Virus record (IMG/VR): IMGVR_UViG_2563366928_000012
Location: 1 to 39,483 of that record
Direction: 5' to 3' (one strand)
Length of the DNA stretch: 39,483 nt
From: a virus
Lineage: Duplodnaviria > Heunggongvirae > Uroviricota > Caudoviricetes
The notes beneath the pieces were generated by a model. The model ran no database searches. It worked only from the letters and a program-made list of their open reading frames with translations, and was not told where the DNA came from. The position numbers and the translations under genes are program-made. Shown here one piece after another: positions 23,168 through 35,792 of this stretch. Within the stretch, counting starts at the first letter, position 1. Each line of letters begins with the position of its first letter.

Positions 23168-23243
23168 TGGTGCTGGTTAACGGACTTGAACCGCTACCCA
23201 TTCGCTTACAAGGCGACTGCTCTACCATTGGAGCTAAACCAGC
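23168..23243 (-). tRNA. tRNA, anticodon UGU (Thr) by hand fold
   Basis: 76 nt cloverleaf: acceptor GCTGGTT/AACCAGC, D-stem GCTC/GAGC, anticodon loop CTTGTAA, T-loop TTCAAGT, encoded 3' ACCA. Confidence 0.6.
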
Positions 23244-23248
23244 ATGTT

Positions 23249-23323
23249 TGGCGGGACAGCGTGGACTCGAACCACGATAAGAAGGTTAACAGCCTTCCGT
23301 AATGACCTTTATACGACTGACCC
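23249..23323 (-). tRNA. tRNA-like, anticodon GUU (Asn) by hand fold, imperfect stems
   Basis: 75 nt: anticodon stem GAAGG/CCTTC, loop CTGTTAA, T-arm CGTGG-TTCGAGT-CCACG, 3' GCCA; one acceptor-stem and one D-stem mismatch. Confidence 0.45.
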
Positions 23324-26434: not shown

Positions 26435-28315
26435 TTAATACTCCGTCACGTTTTCCTGTCGCCACGCCTCGTCATATTCCGATTTCGGCATATTGGCGAT
26501 GTAGCTATATGGCGATCCTGATTCAAGTTGCAGGAACTGGTGCGATTGCTCGTCAAGGAACAACGGGACACCACCTTCCCAACCTTCGCCGTTACGTTGT
26601 TTTTCAAGCATCAAAACAGATGCCGGAGATGCCAGTAGCTGTTCGTCCTTCTCTGACATCTTTTCACCACTCTGAACTCTCTGTAACGCTCTCTCGCGAG
26701 CCTTGTTACGCCAGATGATGAAAAGGTTGTCTGTCAGGTCTGTTATCGCTCCAGAGCCTTTTACGTCCATTTTCCCGGTTGGTTTTTCTTCGCTGTCTCC
26801 TTTTCGCGAGTGAGTAACGAGAATGACGTGGGAGTTTGTTTTGTTTTTGAAGTCGCAAATCGAGTCAACAAACGCCTTCTGCCCGTTATAGTCATCGTCG
26901 CCTATGCCACATTTCATCAGGCTGTCGATGATGAATAACTGGATCCCGTATCGGCGGCGAGCGTAGTCGAATATTTCGATCAGCCTGTCGGCTTTCGCCG
27001 TTCCGGTCAGGCCAAACACCCAAAGTCTTTCGTCATAAAATTTAAATGCAGAGTCAATTTCCAGCACTGGCGGCATCTTGCAGCACGTCGCCTGACGGGT
27101 AAGGCGCTTAAGGAGAATACCAGGCTTCAGCTCAAGTGACGCGATGCACGTCTTCACACCCTGACGCATTGCCTCAAGTGCCATATGCCCGACAACCTCC
27201 GTTTTTCCGTGACCGTTCACACCATTGACCAGCGTCAACTCTGCCTCACGGAACTGGAATTTATCTGCCAGAGATTCCCACGGTGGATTAAACAGATATT
27301 GCTGCTTGCCGTAGAAAGCGTTGATAGTGTCCTGGTAAAACTCTCGCGCGCTGTAGAGTTCTTCAGGATCGAAGTAGGATGCCGTGCCGATGTACTGCCA
27401 GATTTCATCCTCGGTAACACCGTTCATCAGGCATTCGTTGATGTCTTTGTACGGCAGAGTAACAAGACGGCAACGATGTTCACCGAGTCGGCTTGCGATT
27501 TCCCTTGCGGCTTCACGACCAACATCATCAACGTCCATCGAGATGAATATTTCCTCAAACCTGTCGAGGTTGTGATACTCAAACTCAATCCACTGTTGCT
27601 TAGCGCCTTTCCCGCCACCAAACGGCACGGATAACGCCGAGATGCCGTATTGCGCATAGCTCATACAATCAATTTCGCCTTCGCAAAGCACAACCGCCCT
27701 CACGCCAGCGTCCAGAGCCTGCCATCCGAACAGGCAAGGTTCGCAATCACCTTCTGCCATAATGACTTTCTTCCCGTCCTGGCGCTCAGTGCTGATTCGC
27801 TTGACCTGCAACAACTCACCATCGCGTTTGTACGGAATCACCAGAGCATCCAGTTCCCGCTCTCCATTCCACACCTTGCCGCTGACAACCTCGTAGCGCT
27901 TTACGATTTCTGGCGATATGCCACGCGATTGCAGGTACTCAAGATGGGATTCTGTTCTGGTAACGTAGCGGGCGATTTTCTTGCGATCAGGTCTGGAGAA
28001 TTTCTTCTCACGTCTGGCATCGAAATGGTGATCGTCATCCTTGATACCGAGAAATGCTTTCGCTTCCTGCATAGCCTGATGCAGGTTAATTCCACGACAT
28101 GCCATCCACAAATCAAGCATGTCACCGCCGTCTCCCTCAGCGAAATCAGCCCATTTTTTCTTGCCGCTAAGGTTGACCTTAAGGCTGTTTCCCTTGTCAC
28201 CGTTGACGTTACCGGCAACCCACTCATGCCCCTCTTTCTTGCCGTTTGGCAACAGGTGTGGAGCCACCCTGTCAACCTGCGCCCAAAGCAGGTCACTGAG
28301 TTCACTTGGCGTCAT
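26435..28315 (-). CDS. Replicative primase-helicase (TOPRIM primase fused to DnaB-like P-loop helicase)
   Basis: 626 aa; Walker A-like GVNGHGKT in C-terminal half, primase-like N-terminal half; sits downstream of the O-like initiator. Confidence 0.7.
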   Translation of the reverse strand: MTPSELSDLLWAQVDRVAPHLLPNGKKEGHEWVAGNVNGDKGNSLKVNLSGKKKWADFAEGDGGDMLDLWMACRGINLHQAMQEAKAFLGIKDDDHHFDARREKKFSRPDRKKIARYVTRTESHLEYLQSRGISPEIVKRYEVVSGKVWNGERELDALVIPYKRDGELLQVKRISTERQDGKKVIMAEGDCEPCLFGWQALDAGVRAVVLCEGEIDCMSYAQYGISALSVPFGGGKGAKQQWIEFEYHNLDRFEEIFISMDVDDVGREAAREIASRLGEHRCRLVTLPYKDINECLMNGVTEDEIWQYIGTASYFDPEELYSAREFYQDTINAFYGKQQYLFNPPWESLADKFQFREAELTLVNGVNGHGKTEVVGHMALEAMRQGVKTCIASLELKPGILLKRLTRQATCCKMPPVLEIDSAFKFYDERLWVFGLTGTAKADRLIEIFDYARRRYGIQLFIIDSLMKCGIGDDDYNGQKAFVDSICDFKNKTNSHVILVTHSRKGDSEEKPTGKMDVKGSGAITDLTDNLFIIWRNKARERALQRVQSGEKMSEKDEQLLASPASVLMLEKQRNGEGWEGGVPLFLDEQSHQFLQLESGSPYSYIANMPKSEYDEAWRQENVTEY

Positions 28316-28422: not shown

Positions 28423-29283
28423 TCACCTGTCGAAAAACACGTAGCCAGTTTTCGATACGGTGATTGCGGATGATGGTTTGGATTGTGGTTGAATAGTTTC
28501 TGGCTTCTCGTCGTTCCAGCGTTGACCGTTCAGGTAGCTCGATGGTAACAACCTGTCGAATCCGAACTGCTTACCATTCCTGCATGCGATGTCTTCTGCC
28601 AGCATCGTGGCAAACTCGCTTGCCGTACCCCTGGTAGTTTTACGCCATTCCCTGAACTGTGTTCTGAATGCCGAAGCTGCGTTTTTCTTCCCGGCCTTCC
28701 GCATGCCTGCACACCAGAATATTTCCTCGAATGCCTTGTCGGTTTCTTCGTGACGGTCATGTGATTTTTCACACTCCGTCCGAACACTTTCGGACATAGT
28801 GTTTTTATTATTTCTTTTTTCTTTTGTAATAGTTTCTTTTGTGTGTCCCTGTTTTGGTGACAGCGCTGTCACCGTTTTGGTGACACTTTTTGTCACCAAT
28901 GCAGTGACATTATCACCAGAGTAGTGACACCCTTCGTTTTGCCATTCCTCGATGTTCTTGTTAGGCCCGATTTGCTGGCCTTCGCGAAGGATAACCTTCA
29001 TCGCGATAAGCTCATTCTTGGCCTTGTTTACCTTCTGTCTTGGCAGCCTGGTAATTTGAGCTAACTGACTATCAGAGATGCGATCCATATTTTTACCGTA
29101 GCCGTATGTTTTACGGCATATGGCGTGGGCAACCTTGCTCTGATTTTTCGTTAAATCTGCGCCGATAAGCTCTTCATACAGGGCATTTGCAAGACGGGTA
29201 TAACCATCTTCAACTTCTGCCACACGACGCTCCACAGGCCGTTGTGAAGGCCTTAAATGTGTTACGGTTGCAAGATTACTCAT
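28423..29283 (-). CDS. Replication initiator, lambda O-like N-terminal domain
   Basis: [47 protein letters not shown] resembles lambda O N-terminal domain; iteron array embedded in the coding sequence. Confidence 0.75.
28800..28930. repeat. Origin of replication: GGTGACA-type iterons plus adjacent AT-rich tract
   Basis: TTTTGGTGACAGCGCTGTCACCGTTTTGGTGACACTTTTTGTCACCAATGCAGTGACATTATCACCAGAGTAGTGACACCC next to a T-rich stretch, inside the O-like gene. Confidence 0.7.
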
Positions 29284-29454
29284 GACCTTTCTCCTTCTGC
29301 ATCAGCTTCACTTTTTCCAACTCAGCCCGGAATCGACCAGGCTGCTTGAAGCTGGACAGGAAGCGATCACGTAGTATGTGTTTGTGAATTTTGTCCTGGT
29401 AAGGACTGAGTTGTTTTGTCATAATTACTCCTGTGGATTGATCCAGTAATTCCC

Positions 29455-29754
29455 TCAGAACTCCATCTGGATTTGTTCAGAACGCTCGGTCTTGCACACC
29501 GGGCGTTTTTTATTGGTGATTCCATCAAGCGCATACTTAAAAGCCCTGCTAATCGGACTGATGTCTGATGCCATTCCGAAAGCACACAAGACCGAAGCAA
29601 TAAATCTCCAGTCCGTTCTGCTTATCTTCGATTCATGACAGCCAATCATCTTTGCCAGACCGCGCTGGGTAAGCGTTGACAGGTTGATGAGTAAATCCGT
29701 TTCTGCGCGATCAACGTCGCGCTGGGATAGTTTGCTGTAACTTGTTTGTGTCAT
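29455..29754 (-). CDS. cII: CII transcriptional activator
   Basis: C-terminus [20 protein letters not shown] matches recalled lambda CII C-terminus. Confidence 0.8.
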
Positions 29755-29840: not shown

Positions 29841-29885
29841 CGCTTTTCAGCGACGTAGGACGAATGTCCGTTGTTACAAAGAGCG
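29841..29885 (-). promoter_or_regulatory. nutR-like site (boxA plus boxB)
   Basis: Minus strand: boxA CGCTCTTTG (29877-29885), then boxB hairpin TCGC-TGAAAA-GCGA (29841-29852). Confidence 0.55.
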
Positions 29886-29895
29886 GATCCGCTTA

Positions 29896-30111
29896 TTAAG
29901 CGGCTTTGTGTTCCGGCGGGAACACGTCATCAAGACTGACTTTTGCGCCTAACTTGTTTAGGCATGCAACAAGAGCACGGCATGTTTTAAGGTCTGGGAA
30001 GCGACGACCAGATTCCCAATGTCCGATAGCTCCCTGTGTGCATCCAACTGCCTTAGCAAGTGTTGTTTGAGAGATATTCAGTGACTCTCGATATTTTCGT
30101 AGGTTGCTCAT
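29896..30111 (-). CDS. cro: Cro-like HTH repressor
   Basis: 71 aa with HTH (ISQTTLAKAVGCTQGAIGHWESG), divergent from cI. Confidence 0.75.
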   Translation of the reverse strand: MSNLRKYRESLNISQTTLAKAVGCTQGAIGHWESGRRFPDLKTCRALVACLNKLGAKVSLDDVFPPEHKAA

Positions 30112-30220
30112 ATGCCCTCCATAGTAAACACGAATAAAAATACAATATGTACTTTACGAATACAAGTAAAAATACACATTGTGCATGGATGGTTCCAGTA
30201 CAAAGCGTAATAATAAGGAC
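30112..30220. promoter_or_regulatory. OR region (PR/PRM with candidate operators)
   Basis: Intergenic between cro and cI; contains ATACAATATGTACTTT and TACAAAGCGT, words shared with the putative OL region (32400-32470). Confidence 0.45.
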
Positions 30221-30880
30221 ATGAAAATGAAATGGTATGAACTGGCTAGATCCAGAATGAAAGAGCTCGGCATAACTCAAGAGAAGTTAGCCGAAGAGCT
30301 AGGTATGACGCAGGGTGGGATTGGACACTGGTTGCGCGGATCTCGTCATCCATCTCTTAGTGATATTGGTGTGGTGTTTAAATACCTTGGTATTGATAAC
30401 ATATCATTCAACCACGACGGGACATTTTCACCTGTTGGCGAATACTCATCGGCCCCAGTTAAAAAACAATATGAGTACCCTGTTTTTTCTCATGTTCAGG
30501 CTGGGATGTTCTCTCCAGAACTCAGAACCTTTACCAAAGGCGATGCGGAGAGATTGGTAAGCACAACCAAAAAAGCCAGTGACTCTGCATTCTGGCTTGA
30601 GGTTGAAGGTAACTCAATGACCGCACCAACAGGTTCCAAACCCAGCTTTCCTGACGGGATGTTAATTCTGGTTGACCCTGAGCAAGCTGTTGAGCCCGGC
30701 GATTTCTGCATAGCCAGACTTGGTGGTGATGAATTTACCTTCAAGAAACTGATCAGGGATAGCGGTCAGGTGTTTCTACAGCCACTAAACCCACAATACC
30801 CAATGATCCCATGCAATGAGAGTTGTTCCGTTGTGGGGAAAGTTATCGCCAGCCAATGGCCTGAAGAGACGTTTGGGTGA
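30221..30880 (+). CDS. cI: CI repressor: non-lambda N-terminal HTH fused to lambda-type CI C-terminal (S24/LexA-like) domain
   Basis: C-terminal about 150 aa from [28 protein letters not shown] to PEETFG match recalled lambda CI almost residue for residue; N-terminal HTH differs. Confidence 0.85.
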
Positions 30881-30919
30881 TGAAACCACTTTTATCTACA
30901 ATTTACAGGGCGGTAAACA

Positions 30920-31477
30920 TTGGCAAAAATAGATGATTATCAGCCAAGCCAAGTAGAAGTTGATAAAGTACTTTATTGTAAAAAAATAGTTAACTTTTCT
31001 GGCGTTAAATGGAAACAGAAACCAAGTCGCTCTGATATGTGGCTACAAGCTCATATCATCCCCTTGGATGAGGATTGTATACCTATACAAGGGCTAAAGT
31101 TTGAACTGAAATGGAAACCAGATCAGGATTCAGAACCTGATGACCCGATTTCTTACCCTAAAATAAATATTATTGCTTTCTATCATAACAAGAGGGTTTT
31201 CGCGGTAGATACCTATCACTTTGACAAACACACGAATAGTTACAAGGTCGATCATCCGAAGTACCAAGATATCATTTACGGTGCTCACTACCATGTATAC
31301 TATGAAGAAGCTGGATACTATAGTGATAGAATAGCGTTTCCAATCGAAGATGACATAAACCCAGATGACCTGGTAGGGTATTGGAATTACTTCTGTAAAC
31401 ATCTGAACATAACTTACTCTGGGAGAATACCTTTACCGCTTGAAGATGAGTCGGGGCAAATGGGGTTTGGAATATGA
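30920..31477 (+). CDS. Hypothetical protein A of AT-rich two-gene operon downstream of cI (candidate exclusion/defence gene)
   Basis: 185 aa, Tyr/His/Asp-rich, no recognised domain; possible D...E-x-K motif (PLDED...KFELK). Stop overlaps next gene start (ATGA). Confidence 0.55.
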   Translation: MAKIDDYQPSQVEVDKVLYCKKIVNFSGVKWKQKPSRSDMWLQAHIIPLDEDCIPIQGLKFELKWKPDQDSEPDDPISYPKINIIAFYHNKRVFAVDTYHFDKHTNSYKVDHPKYQDIIYGAHYHVYYEEAGYYSDRIAFPIEDDINPDDLVGYWNYFCKHLNITYSGRIPLPLEDESGQMGFGI

Positions 31478-32226
31478 TGTGCTCAACAGTGATCTCACAA
31501 CTAGGTTTCGAATGCCATCCAATAGGCAAGACCTTGAGAATTATCAGTCCATTCACTTACTGTGATGATGGAGAGCATGTCGGTGCCTTTATCCGTGAAG
31601 TCAATGGTAGGTATTTAGTTAGTGACAGATGCGATGCCTTAATGAATATGGAGGCAAGAGGGATCTCGCTTACCAAAAAACGACTTGATGAGATACGACA
31701 ATTACTGCTTAAAGAAGGCGCAGAACTCAATGCTCGAGGAGAAATCATTGCTTGGGCAACAGAAAAGGATGTCGGTGCGATTACATCGAACATAATTAGA
31801 GCTGGTATACTCGCATCAACTTTGTCGTTAGACTGGTATCAGCCAGTTCAAGCTGAAAAGTTTGAAAGTATGGTTATTGATTATCTATATCACACAGAGC
31901 TTAGAGACGCACTTTCTCTTCGTGAAAACGTATATGGCTTGAGTGGACATCAAATTACCGTCCCTGTAACAATAAAAACCGACATACCTAAATACGTTTT
32001 TACATCAAGCGTGAAACACGGAGGAAGCTGGAATAGTGCTTACTCATTGCTTGGGAAACTAATTGATCTTAAAGCTTCAAGTGAGGAGTATAACAACAGA
32101 TTTGTTGTTATAGACAGCGAAGCAATTGGTGATCAAATGCAACAACTCTCCTTACTCTTCCATGAATCAAGCCAAGTTCTACCATTCTCCAAAAGAGAGA
32201 CTTGGATTAAGAGACTTGCAGCATAA
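31474..32226 (+). CDS. Hypothetical protein B of AT-rich two-gene operon downstream of cI (candidate exclusion/defence gene)
   Basis: 250 aa, no recognised motif; translationally coupled to gene A; followed by an intrinsic terminator. Confidence 0.55.
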   Translation: MMCSTVISQLGFECHPIGKTLRIISPFTYCDDGEHVGAFIREVNGRYLVSDRCDALMNMEARGISLTKKRLDEIRQLLLKEGAELNARGEIIAWATEKDVGAITSNIIRAGILASTLSLDWYQPVQAEKFESMVIDYLYHTELRDALSLRENVYGLSGHQITVPVTIKTDIPKYVFTSSVKHGGSWNSAYSLLGKLIDLKASSEEYNNRFVVIDSEAIGDQMQQLSLLFHESSQVLPFSKRETWIKRLAA

Positions 32227-32231
32227 TACAA

Positions 32232-32258
32232 CCCGGCCTCAGCGCCGGGTTTTCTTTG
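32232..32258 (+). terminator. Intrinsic terminator ending the cI operon (tIMM-like)
   Basis: CCCGGC-CTCA-GCGCCGGG then TTTTCTTT. Confidence 0.6.
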
Positions 32259-32399
32259 CCTCACGTTCGCCCACCTAAAAACACATAACCAATTATATTT
32301 ATTGAAAAATAAATAGATGCAACCCACTAAACCACGCAATTCTGATCTCTCCTTACATCGCCGAGACAATACATCCACGCTAAAAAACAACACTATTAA

Positions 32400-32475
32400 A
32401 TACAAAGCGTTATAAAAAACCACGCCAACTTACAACAAATTGTATTGATCTTGTAAAGTACATATCGTACTATTT
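32400..32475 (+). promoter_or_regulatory. PL/OL-like region
   Basis: Contains TACAAAGCGT and AAAGTACATAT (reverse complement of an OR word) and TACAA-N4-TTGTA inverted repeat, upstream of nutL and N. Confidence 0.4.
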
Positions 32476-32519: not shown

Positions 32520-32565
32520 GCTCTTTAAACAACGTCGACTCTCGACTACGTGGCTGAAAAGCCAG
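32520..32565 (+). promoter_or_regulatory. nutL-like site (boxA plus boxB)
   Basis: boxA GCTCTTTAA (32520-32528), then boxB hairpin TGGC-TGAAAA-GCCA (32551-32564), upstream of N. Confidence 0.55.
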
Positions 32566-32662: not shown

Positions 32663-32935
32663 ATGTCCAGAAAAACAGAATTTAAAGGCACCGCAGCTTC
32701 TCGCCGTAGAGCTCGTCGCGCAAATCTGCAAAGTCAGGAGGCGATCAGCTCCGACAAGCTACACAGGCCAACCCCTTCACGAGTGGTCTTGCAATGCAAG
32801 CGCAAACCAGCAATGAGAGCAGAAGTAATAACACTGACAACGTTGACCAGAAAATATGAAGGTTCAACTTGTCTTCCGAACGTAGCTCTTTACGCGGCAG
32901 GCTACCGGAAATCCAAACAACTGACAGCAAGATGA
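32663..32935 (+). CDS. N: Antiterminator N (P22 gp24-like)
   Basis: Arg-rich motif GTAASRRRARRANLQ near N-terminus; C-terminus NVALYAAGYRKSKQLTAR matches recalled P22 N tail; GGAGG RBS. Confidence 0.75.
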   Translation: MSRKTEFKGTAASRRRARRANLQSQEAISSDKLHRPTPSRVVLQCKRKPAMRAEVITLTTLTRKYEGSTCLPNVALYAAGYRKSKQLTAR

Positions 32936-35624: not shown

Positions 35625-35792
35625 ATGAGAGGACTTGCATACAATCCCGGCATTCTTCCGGCAGAAATGATTATTCGCCAACGCGTAAAGCCAATGCCAT
35701 CGAGAGAGGAATTGCTTAAGAGAAATAGTTTCGGTTCTGTTAATGACAACAAATATCTGAATGCGATGTGGCGCAAAGGAGGCAACCAGTGA
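35625..35792 (+). CDS. Small hypothetical protein
   Basis: Internal ATG ([15 protein letters not shown]...) preceded by GAGGAA. Confidence 0.3.

Follow-up and report, generated by a model that had tools for sequence, protein, structure and literature searches.

A lambda-tailed repressor with a different DNA-binding head and six putative operator sites at the lysogeny switch of a common E. coli prophage type

The window analysed here, the whole 39,483-nt stretch of phage DNA, carries the lysogeny switch of a prophage type that is common in E. coli; as read from its sequence, the switch couples a lambda-tailed repressor with a different head to six putative operator sites. This is very probably the primary immunity region (cI-OR-cro together with OL-PL-N) of a CUS-3-like, P22-like temperate phage, and of the immunity type already known from VT2-Sakai, the Stx1 and Stx2-II converting phages and phage 1717. 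The locus is real, has already been annotated and published for VT2-Sakai and its relatives, and is nothing new in itself. Directly observed in this analysis are the sequences, the domain identities, the motif statistics, the pattern of conservation and the identity to annotated phages.

The bipartite lambdoid layout is present, with divergent cI and cro genes around a multi-site OR and a second cluster, OL, at PL and N (Table 1). The gap between the cro start (30111, minus strand) and the cI start (30227, plus strand) is 115 bp, and the region runs in reversed orientation relative to lambda. The stretch singled out in a sequence-only reading of the same DNA, 30112-30880, spans OR and cI; the OL half of its observation falls outside, at 32398-32472. 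Two flanking blocks are homologous to lambda DNA, one at the cII/O junction (29415-29519, 91% identity) and one in the terminator region past the rex slot (32230-32351, 90% nucleotide identity to lambda 35826-35708), and the terminator within the latter corresponds to lambda DNA just past rexB. Outside the immunity region the window is a CUS-3-like, P22-like phage, CUS-3 covering 75% of bases 1-25000 at 95.8% identity. The O-like gene is adjoined by a gene for a 626-aa replication protein (26435-28315, minus strand), where the relatives that share the immunity region carry lambda P or a DnaB-like helicase, which indicates that the replication module was swapped independently of immunity. Two adjoining phage tRNA genes, tRNA-Thr(TGT) and tRNA-Asn(GTT), lie at 23168-23323 on the minus strand.

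Table 1. Features of the immunity region and its flanks, in window coordinates.
Feature	Position	Strand	Evidence or remark
O-like replication gene	28423..29283	-	
cII	29455..29754	-	Phage_CII, E = 4e-34
nutR boxB CGCTGAAAAGCG	29841-29852	-	matches boxB of nutL
cro (71 aa), HTH_3-type	29896..30111	-	open reading frame; Pfam HTH_3, E = 4e-12
OR1 AAATACAATATGTACTT	30138..30154	.	holds reverse complement of AAAGTACATAT; identical to AP005153 annotated operator and to VT2-SA OR1; top PWM score, 19.9 bits
OR2 AAATACACATTGTGCAT	30170..30186	.	centre 43 bp upstream of ATG 30221; identical to VT2-SA OR2
OR3 CAGTACAAAGCGTAATA	30196..30212	.	holds TACAAAGCGT; overlaps putative PRM -10; one mismatch to VT2-SA OR3
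cI repressor gene (217 aa)	30227..30880	+	HTH_3 and Peptidase_S24
cI N-terminal, immunity-specific part (HTH_3 DNA-binding domain and linker, residues 1-81)	30227..30469	+	
cI lambda-type cleavage-site region and Peptidase_S24 dimerisation/autocleavage domain	30470..30880	+	
Ala-Gly cleavage site	30500-30505	+	
Catalytic Ser	30614-30616	+	
Catalytic Lys	30743-30745	+	
Two-gene cargo in rexA/rexB slot (185 aa, 250 aa; stop/start overlap)	30920..32226	+	
Intrinsic terminator closing the cI operon	32230..32251	+	terminator scan
OL3 AAATACAAAGCGTTATA	32398..32414	.	holds TACAAAGCGT; one mismatch to VT2-SA OL3
OL2 TACAACAAATTGTATTG	32431..32447	.	overlaps putative PL -35 (TTGATC, 32445-32450); one mismatch to VT2-SA OL2
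OL1 AAGTACATATCGTACTA	32456..32472	.	holds AAAGTACATAT; overlaps putative PL spacer and -10 (TACTAT, 32468-32473); identical to VT2-SA OL1
nutL-like site: boxA-like GCTCTTTAA (32520), boxB-like GGCTGAAAAGCC (32552)	32520..32563	+	resemblance to lambdoid nut sites
Antiterminator N gene (90 aa), arginine-rich motif near N-terminus	32663..32935	+	Pfam N_peptide, E = 3.4e-32

The C-terminal dimerisation and autocleavage domain had been described as essentially that of lambda CI, and the comparison bears this out: over residues 82-217 cI and lambda CI (101-236) agree at 135 of 136 positions, and the sole change is lambda W129 to Leu. Full-length lambda repressor (3bdn) is the best match of cI among solved structures (E = 2.6e-96), and Peptidase_S24 is found at E = 1.1e-28 (Pfam). 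Residues A92-G93, S130 and K173 align with A111-G112, S149 and K192 of lambda. On this near-identity of the cleavage and C-terminal region, RecA-stimulated self-cleavage and SOS induction would be expected of cI as well. At the DNA level the homology extends over 412 bp (30470-30881, 93.4% nucleotide identity to lambda 37637-37226), and its edges are abrupt, starting at codon 82 (30470) and ending at the stop codon.

Across codons 1-81 of cI (30227-30469) the DNA shows no homology to lambda. The N-terminal domain had been called unrelated. It is certainly different: 20 of 81 residues are identical to the lambda domain in a global alignment and 15 of 50 by BLASTP (E = 8e-8), some 25-30%; it is 20 residues shorter and has no N-terminal arm of the lambda kind, and the recognition helix reads QGGIGHWLR as against QSGVGALFN in lambda. 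‘Unrelated’ goes too far, however, since both domains are HTH_3 (E = 1.9e-10 across residues 11-58 of a 219-aa query, Pfam) and the BLASTP match marks a diverged homologue rather than an unrelated fold. Among solved natural structures the closest phage-repressor match is the lambda N-terminal domain itself (E about 3e-3), ahead of 434 (0.24) and P22 C2 (0.4), yet at the low identity given above; a lambda-type N-terminal domain and recognition helix, by which imm-lambda would be recognised, are thus not what this locus carries. The domain is a diverged HTH_3 homologue closest to the C2 repressor of phage L/ST64T.

The cI open frame reaches back to 30179, with alternative starts at ATG 30221 and ATG 30185. 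ATG 30227 is the likely start; it is preceded by AAGGA 7 nt upstream, and ON470594 annotates the same codon. The longer RefSeq/Sato start at 30185 falls within the operators, in a stretch that evolves like non-coding DNA.

Cro is 35% identical to the cI N-terminal domain (E = 1e-12), and its recognition helix, TQGAIGHW, is a near match to TQGGIGHW of cI. This shared TQG(G/A)IGHW fits both proteins reading one set of operators, as the repressor and Cro of phages 434 and P22 do.

Two words had been reported to recur at OR and at OL, and each does so exactly as stated: the window has just two copies of TACAAAGCGT, one at 30199 (+) and one at 32401 (+), where 0.07 would be expected, and just two of AAAGTACATAT, at 30145 (-) and 32455 (+), where the expectation is 0.00. 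The first copy of each lies in the cro-cI gap and the second 50-120 bp upstream of nutL, which is also upstream of N. The further claim that they belong to operators of this specificity agrees with their setting, as they form the cores of OR3 and OL3 (TACAAAGCGT) and of OR1 and OL1 (AAAGTACATAT), four of what appear from sequence to be six dyad sites, three at each cluster. Each site is 17 bp long and dyad-symmetric, with a half-site of about AAnTACAA derived from twelve half-sites around a central base, a pseudo-palindromic consensus of about AAATACAA-N-TTGTATTT and a TAC-N5-GTA core in all six. In the record of the Stx1 converting phage AP005153 six ‘putative operators’ are annotated, three in each of OR and OL, and these we mapped onto the window. 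A 2023 paper lists six VT2-Sakai operators on the opposite strand in its Table S1, three identical to those of the window and three different by one base (PMC10742460).

A symmetrised position weight matrix (PWM) was cross-validated by training on OR and scoring on OL and the reverse, over 39,467 positions of the window. The OR-only matrix ranked the OL sites 2nd, 5th and 6th, and the OL-only matrix ranked the OR sites 1st, 4th and 9th. A matrix built from all six gives them 15.2-19.9 bits, and they are the highest-scoring positions of the 39.5-kb window, the next-best reaching 10.8 bits. Motif discovery across the two intergenic regions gave the same picture independently of annotation: an OR by OL comparison of all 17-mers yielded a best pair matching at 16/17 and 29 pairs at 13/17 or better, whereas 300 shuffles gave a mean of 0.96 such pairs and a best of 15/17, none of the 300 reaching 16/17. 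Lambda operators, sought with a matrix built from lambda's own six, were not found in either region; the best scores were -2.4 bits in OR and -1.0 in OL, against 13.6-22.5 for the sites of lambda, and the lambda operator consensus expected of imm-lambda is thus missing from both. In electrophoretic mobility shift assays lambda CI bound the VT2-Sakai sites at 3.7-6.4 µM, compared with 0.2-0.35 µM for lambda OR1 and OL1 (PMC10742460). Both results agree with the immunity specificity different from lambda's that the sequence-only reading had proposed.

A seventh candidate, CATAACCAATTATATTT, lies at 32284-32300, some 114 bp upstream of OL3; its score is 8.2 bits in the window and rises to 11.7-13.2 bits in three relatives. 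It was rejected as immunity-specific because it sits in a lambda-homologous block and is carried by lambda itself (35759-35775, 13.2 bits).

If the specificity is not that of lambda, it could in effect be that of Salmonella phages L and ST64T, with cI and the L C2 repressor each repressing the other's operators and belonging to one immunity group. C2 is the closest characterised relative of the N-terminal domain, and its recognition helix (QGAIGHWLNG) is nearly identical to that of cI here; the ST64T/L Cro is 69% identical to the Cro of the window, with recognition helices one residue apart (W to Y). The operator consensus and spacing are the same, and the window PWM gives the ST64T OR and OL sites 11.2-19.0 bits in a layout of 34/26 and 30/25 bp. 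Identity across the N-terminal domains is about 55%, however, far below the rule of thumb of about 90% for shared specificity (PMC2629481), and two helix-3 positions that commonly contact bases differ, as do the central operator bases. Against the requirement of at least about 90% in both the N-terminal domain and Cro for the L/ST64T immC group, the figures of about 55% and 69% fall short, the shared operator consensus nonetheless standing. We consider a common immunity group unlikely, and retain a distinct specificity of the VT2-Sakai type.

The spacing of the sites departs from that of lambda. Centre-to-centre distances are 32 bp (OR1-OR2), 26 bp (OR2-OR3), 33 bp (OL3-OL2) and 25 bp (OL2-OL1), compared with 24/23 and 24/20 bp in lambda. 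Since OR1-OR2 and OL2-OL3 exceed the 20-24 bp of lambda, lambda-style pairwise cooperativity cannot simply be assumed. An extra site between OR1 and OR2 that would restore a lambda-like spacing was sought and rejected, with nothing above 9 bits and a spacer that is not conserved. Every relative scanned has three plus three operators (OR 32-34 and 26 bp, OL 33 and 25 bp), and the uneven spacing is kept across the E. coli relatives and ST64T/L together, at 32-34, 26, 30-33 and 25 bp for OR1-OR2, OR2-OR3, OL3-OL2 and OL2-OL1. As the same spacing goes with a lambda-type C-terminal domain here and with a different one in ST64T/L, the layout tracks the N-terminal domain and operator module and not the oligomerisation domain.

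A more novel reading is that the lambda-type C-terminal domain behaves unusually in this setting, either by mixing subunits between heteroimmune repressors or through a different cooperative wiring. The lambda-like distances of 25-26 bp at OR2-OR3 and OL1-OL2, set beside 32-34 bp at OR1-OR2 and OL2-OL3, suggest that the domain might pair other operators than it does in lambda. The C-terminal segment (30470-30881) occurs 1,435 times in a set of 5,426 complete E. coli genomes, being present in 1,211 of them at no more than three copies each, and the OR and N-terminal module 802 times in 776 of them (about 14%). From this excess, many lambda-type C-terminal domains must be joined to other N-terminal domains, and there are genomes with two or more repressors of this kind, so that some polylysogens may contain two heteroimmune repressors with near-identical dimerisation domains. 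If so, mixed dimers or tetramers could weaken both immunities or couple their induction. We regard behaviour of this kind as quite unlikely, and return to the switch as an immunity region of the known type.

Could the shared words instead be paralogous promoter sequence, left by duplicated PR and PL cassettes, rather than repressor sites? The match between OR1 and OL1 does run on for 3 nt in the promoter spacer past the end of the 17-mer, as the offset of the best pair shows (30141 and 32453), and both word copies have the same orientation relative to their own promoters. A promoter needs no dyad, however, whereas the symmetric TAC-N5-GTA core is present in all six sites, and OR3/OL3 and OR2/OL2 are placed differently relative to the promoters. 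Variation among relatives also spares the symmetric outer triplets and falls on centres and spacers: in an alignment of eight related versions, variable columns number 6 of 72 at the outer operator positions, 10 of 30 at the centres and 26 of 51 in the spacers (outer positions versus spacers, Fisher p = 1.6e-7, which is indicative only, as the sequences are related and the value overstates their independence). Phage L/ST64T, moreover, has the same motif and layout despite different flanking DNA. A promoter origin for the words is therefore very improbable, and we continue to treat them as parts of putative repressor sites.

The promoters themselves are placed with less precision. A generic scan with a threshold of 9/12 called none of PR, PL and PRM, the named hexamers matching at about 7-8/12 (PL, read as TTGATC-17-TACTAT at 32445-32473, at 8/12), so that their positions are given by analogy only. 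OR1 overlaps the putative PR spacer and -10. The centres of OR2 and OR3 lie 43 and 17 bp upstream of ATG 30221, against 42 and 19 bp in lambda, which by analogy would suggest lambda-like activation and autorepression of PRM, possibly with a leaderless transcript. When the nutL and nutR stretches were folded, the boxB hairpins did not stand out in the minimum free energy structure; the nut assignment is accordingly one of motif resemblance only.

The immunity region is widely shared. Its nucleotide identity is 99.7% to ev017, ev207, PhiR57_1 and PhiR63_2, and 96.6-99.7% overall against VT2-Sakai, the Stx1 and Stx2-II converting phages, 1717, ev017 and ev207; the cro-cI and OL-N parts are 96.7% identical to those of Stx phages 1717, YYZ-2008, Stx1-phi, Stx2-phi-II and the WGPS and PA series. 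In VT2-Sakai a 1,605-bp cII-cro-OR-cI block is 96.6% identical and the OL-N block 94.3%, and the cI protein of AP005153 is identical at 217 of 217 residues. A survey of Stx phages places the VT2-Sakai-type CI in ‘clade I’, nearest to lambda CI with 61% overall identity (PMC8951638), and the near-identical cI and cro and the same six 17-bp operators put the window in that clade. In the VT2-Sakai record (NC_000902, 4901-5596) cI is split into a 510-bp ‘cI’ and a ‘c1 repressor protein fragment’; its alignment to the window has five gaps. Either a frameshift error in the 1999 sequencing or a genuine defect of the gene could account for this.

That cI is a recent, one-off recombinant of lambda and a heteroimmune phage, with a new specificity particular to this genome, is almost certainly wrong despite the sharp edges of lambda homology at codon 82 and the stop codon, because the lambda-like block differs at about 27 mostly silent positions, all six of the translated relatives have the same domain pairing (N-terminal domain 75-81 of 81 residues identical, lambda-type C-terminal domain 132-136 of 136), and the N-terminal and OR module recurs in the 776 E. 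coli genomes counted above. At 93.4% identity the block is not a recent copy of lambda, and a full-length homologue with the same pairing in the Salmonella phage vB_SosS_Oslo indicates that the combination is old. The data are compatible with exchange in either direction, and lambda itself may be the recombinant.

For the switch as an immunity region of the known type, the following operation can be proposed, in which cognate DNA binding, promoter positions, cooperativity and RecA cleavage are carried over from lambda by homology. The repressor would dimerise and oligomerise through its lambda-type C-terminal domain, while its phage-L-related HTH_3 N-terminal domain would read the six operators, one trio in the cI-cro gap and the other upstream of PL, nutL and N. 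With OR1 and OL1/OL2 occupied, PR and PL would be blocked. Lambda CI activates PRM from an OR2 in the position found here, and OR2, about 43 bp upstream of the cI start, would do likewise; the overlap of OR3 with the likely PRM -10 would provide for autorepression. Cro, whose recognition helix is nearly that of cI, would presumably recognise these operators too. RecA-stimulated self-cleavage at Ala92-Gly93, with Ser130 and Lys173, would inactivate the repressor and lead to SOS induction.

Between cI and its terminator lies a two-gene cassette (30920-32226) which is probably a prophage-expressed defence candidate. The first gene has a weak match to DUF6978 and to the PADLOC candidate PDC-M24A (E = 4.8e-4), the second matches DUF1828 and PDC-M24B (E = 6e-10), and to judge by its position the cassette would be co-transcribed with cI and terminated at the lambda-like terminator. 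Each fetched relative has other contents in the rex slot, with HicAB in O55:H7 CB9615, DUF3024 and two unknown genes in SCU-104 and an empty slot in E. coli W and phage 683R2; up to about 1.6 kb of cargo, or none at all, separates cI from OL. This cargo is not part of the switch itself.

Several Stx1, Stx2a and Stx2c phages, together with many non-toxin prophages, are induced under the control of this immunity type. Its sites are called ‘operators’ in the literature, in the accessible part of which we found no experiment with the cognate repressor or Cro on them and no cognate repressor-operator measurement, the sole mobility shift assays having used lambda CI. As far as its sequence tells, the region would be a clear-cut case from nature in which a lambda C-terminal domain operates together with a DNA-binding domain foreign to it and with operators spaced differently.

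Domain-level mosaicism of repressors is textbook knowledge for lambdoid phages. A precedent is the 933W repressor, an HK022-like N-terminal domain joined to an H-19B C-terminal domain according to a review citing Fattah et al. 2000 (PMC3202840); its domains are unrelated in sequence to those found here, its OL has only two operators and its binding is non-cooperative. Phi24B (PMC3064807) was set aside as a comparison, having 933W immunity. Closer to the window is vB_SosS_Oslo, an epsilon34-like phage whose repressor has the same pairing of a lambda-like C-terminal domain with an L/VT2-Sa-like N-terminal domain and is 68% identical over its full length; its N-terminal domain and Cro are 51% and 45% identical to those here, and its specificity is therefore probably different. 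The epsilon34 genome paper describes a lambda/HK97-like protease domain with an N-terminal domain that shares about 50% identity with its counterparts in ‘L, VT2-Sa and Ni12’, and proposes an operator, WTACRAWWTGTAT (PMC2629481), that resembles the one in the window.

Among the Stx phages, VT2-Sakai/Sp5, AP005153, AP005154 (Stx2 phage II), 1717 and YYZ-2008 have the same immunity type with a different cargo between cI and OL. The backbone here is CUS-3-like and P22-like and not that of an Stx phage, and the replication genes, with the 626-aa protein, are also unlike those of the VT2-Sakai group. Lambda is resembled in the cleavage region and C-terminal domain, in the three plus three 17-bp operators, the divergent cro, the operon terminator and the gene order. 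It differs in its operators, which read TATCACCG where the half-sites here read AAnTACAA, and in their spacing; the HTH_3-type Cro and the replacement of rexAB are likewise unlike lambda. Phage L/ST64T shares with the window the operator consensus and layout, while the C-terminal domain of its C2 repressor is only distantly related to lambda's, the overall identity of C2 to cI is 47% and the host is Salmonella. The switch works like the system of phage L, and is not filed as the same immunity.
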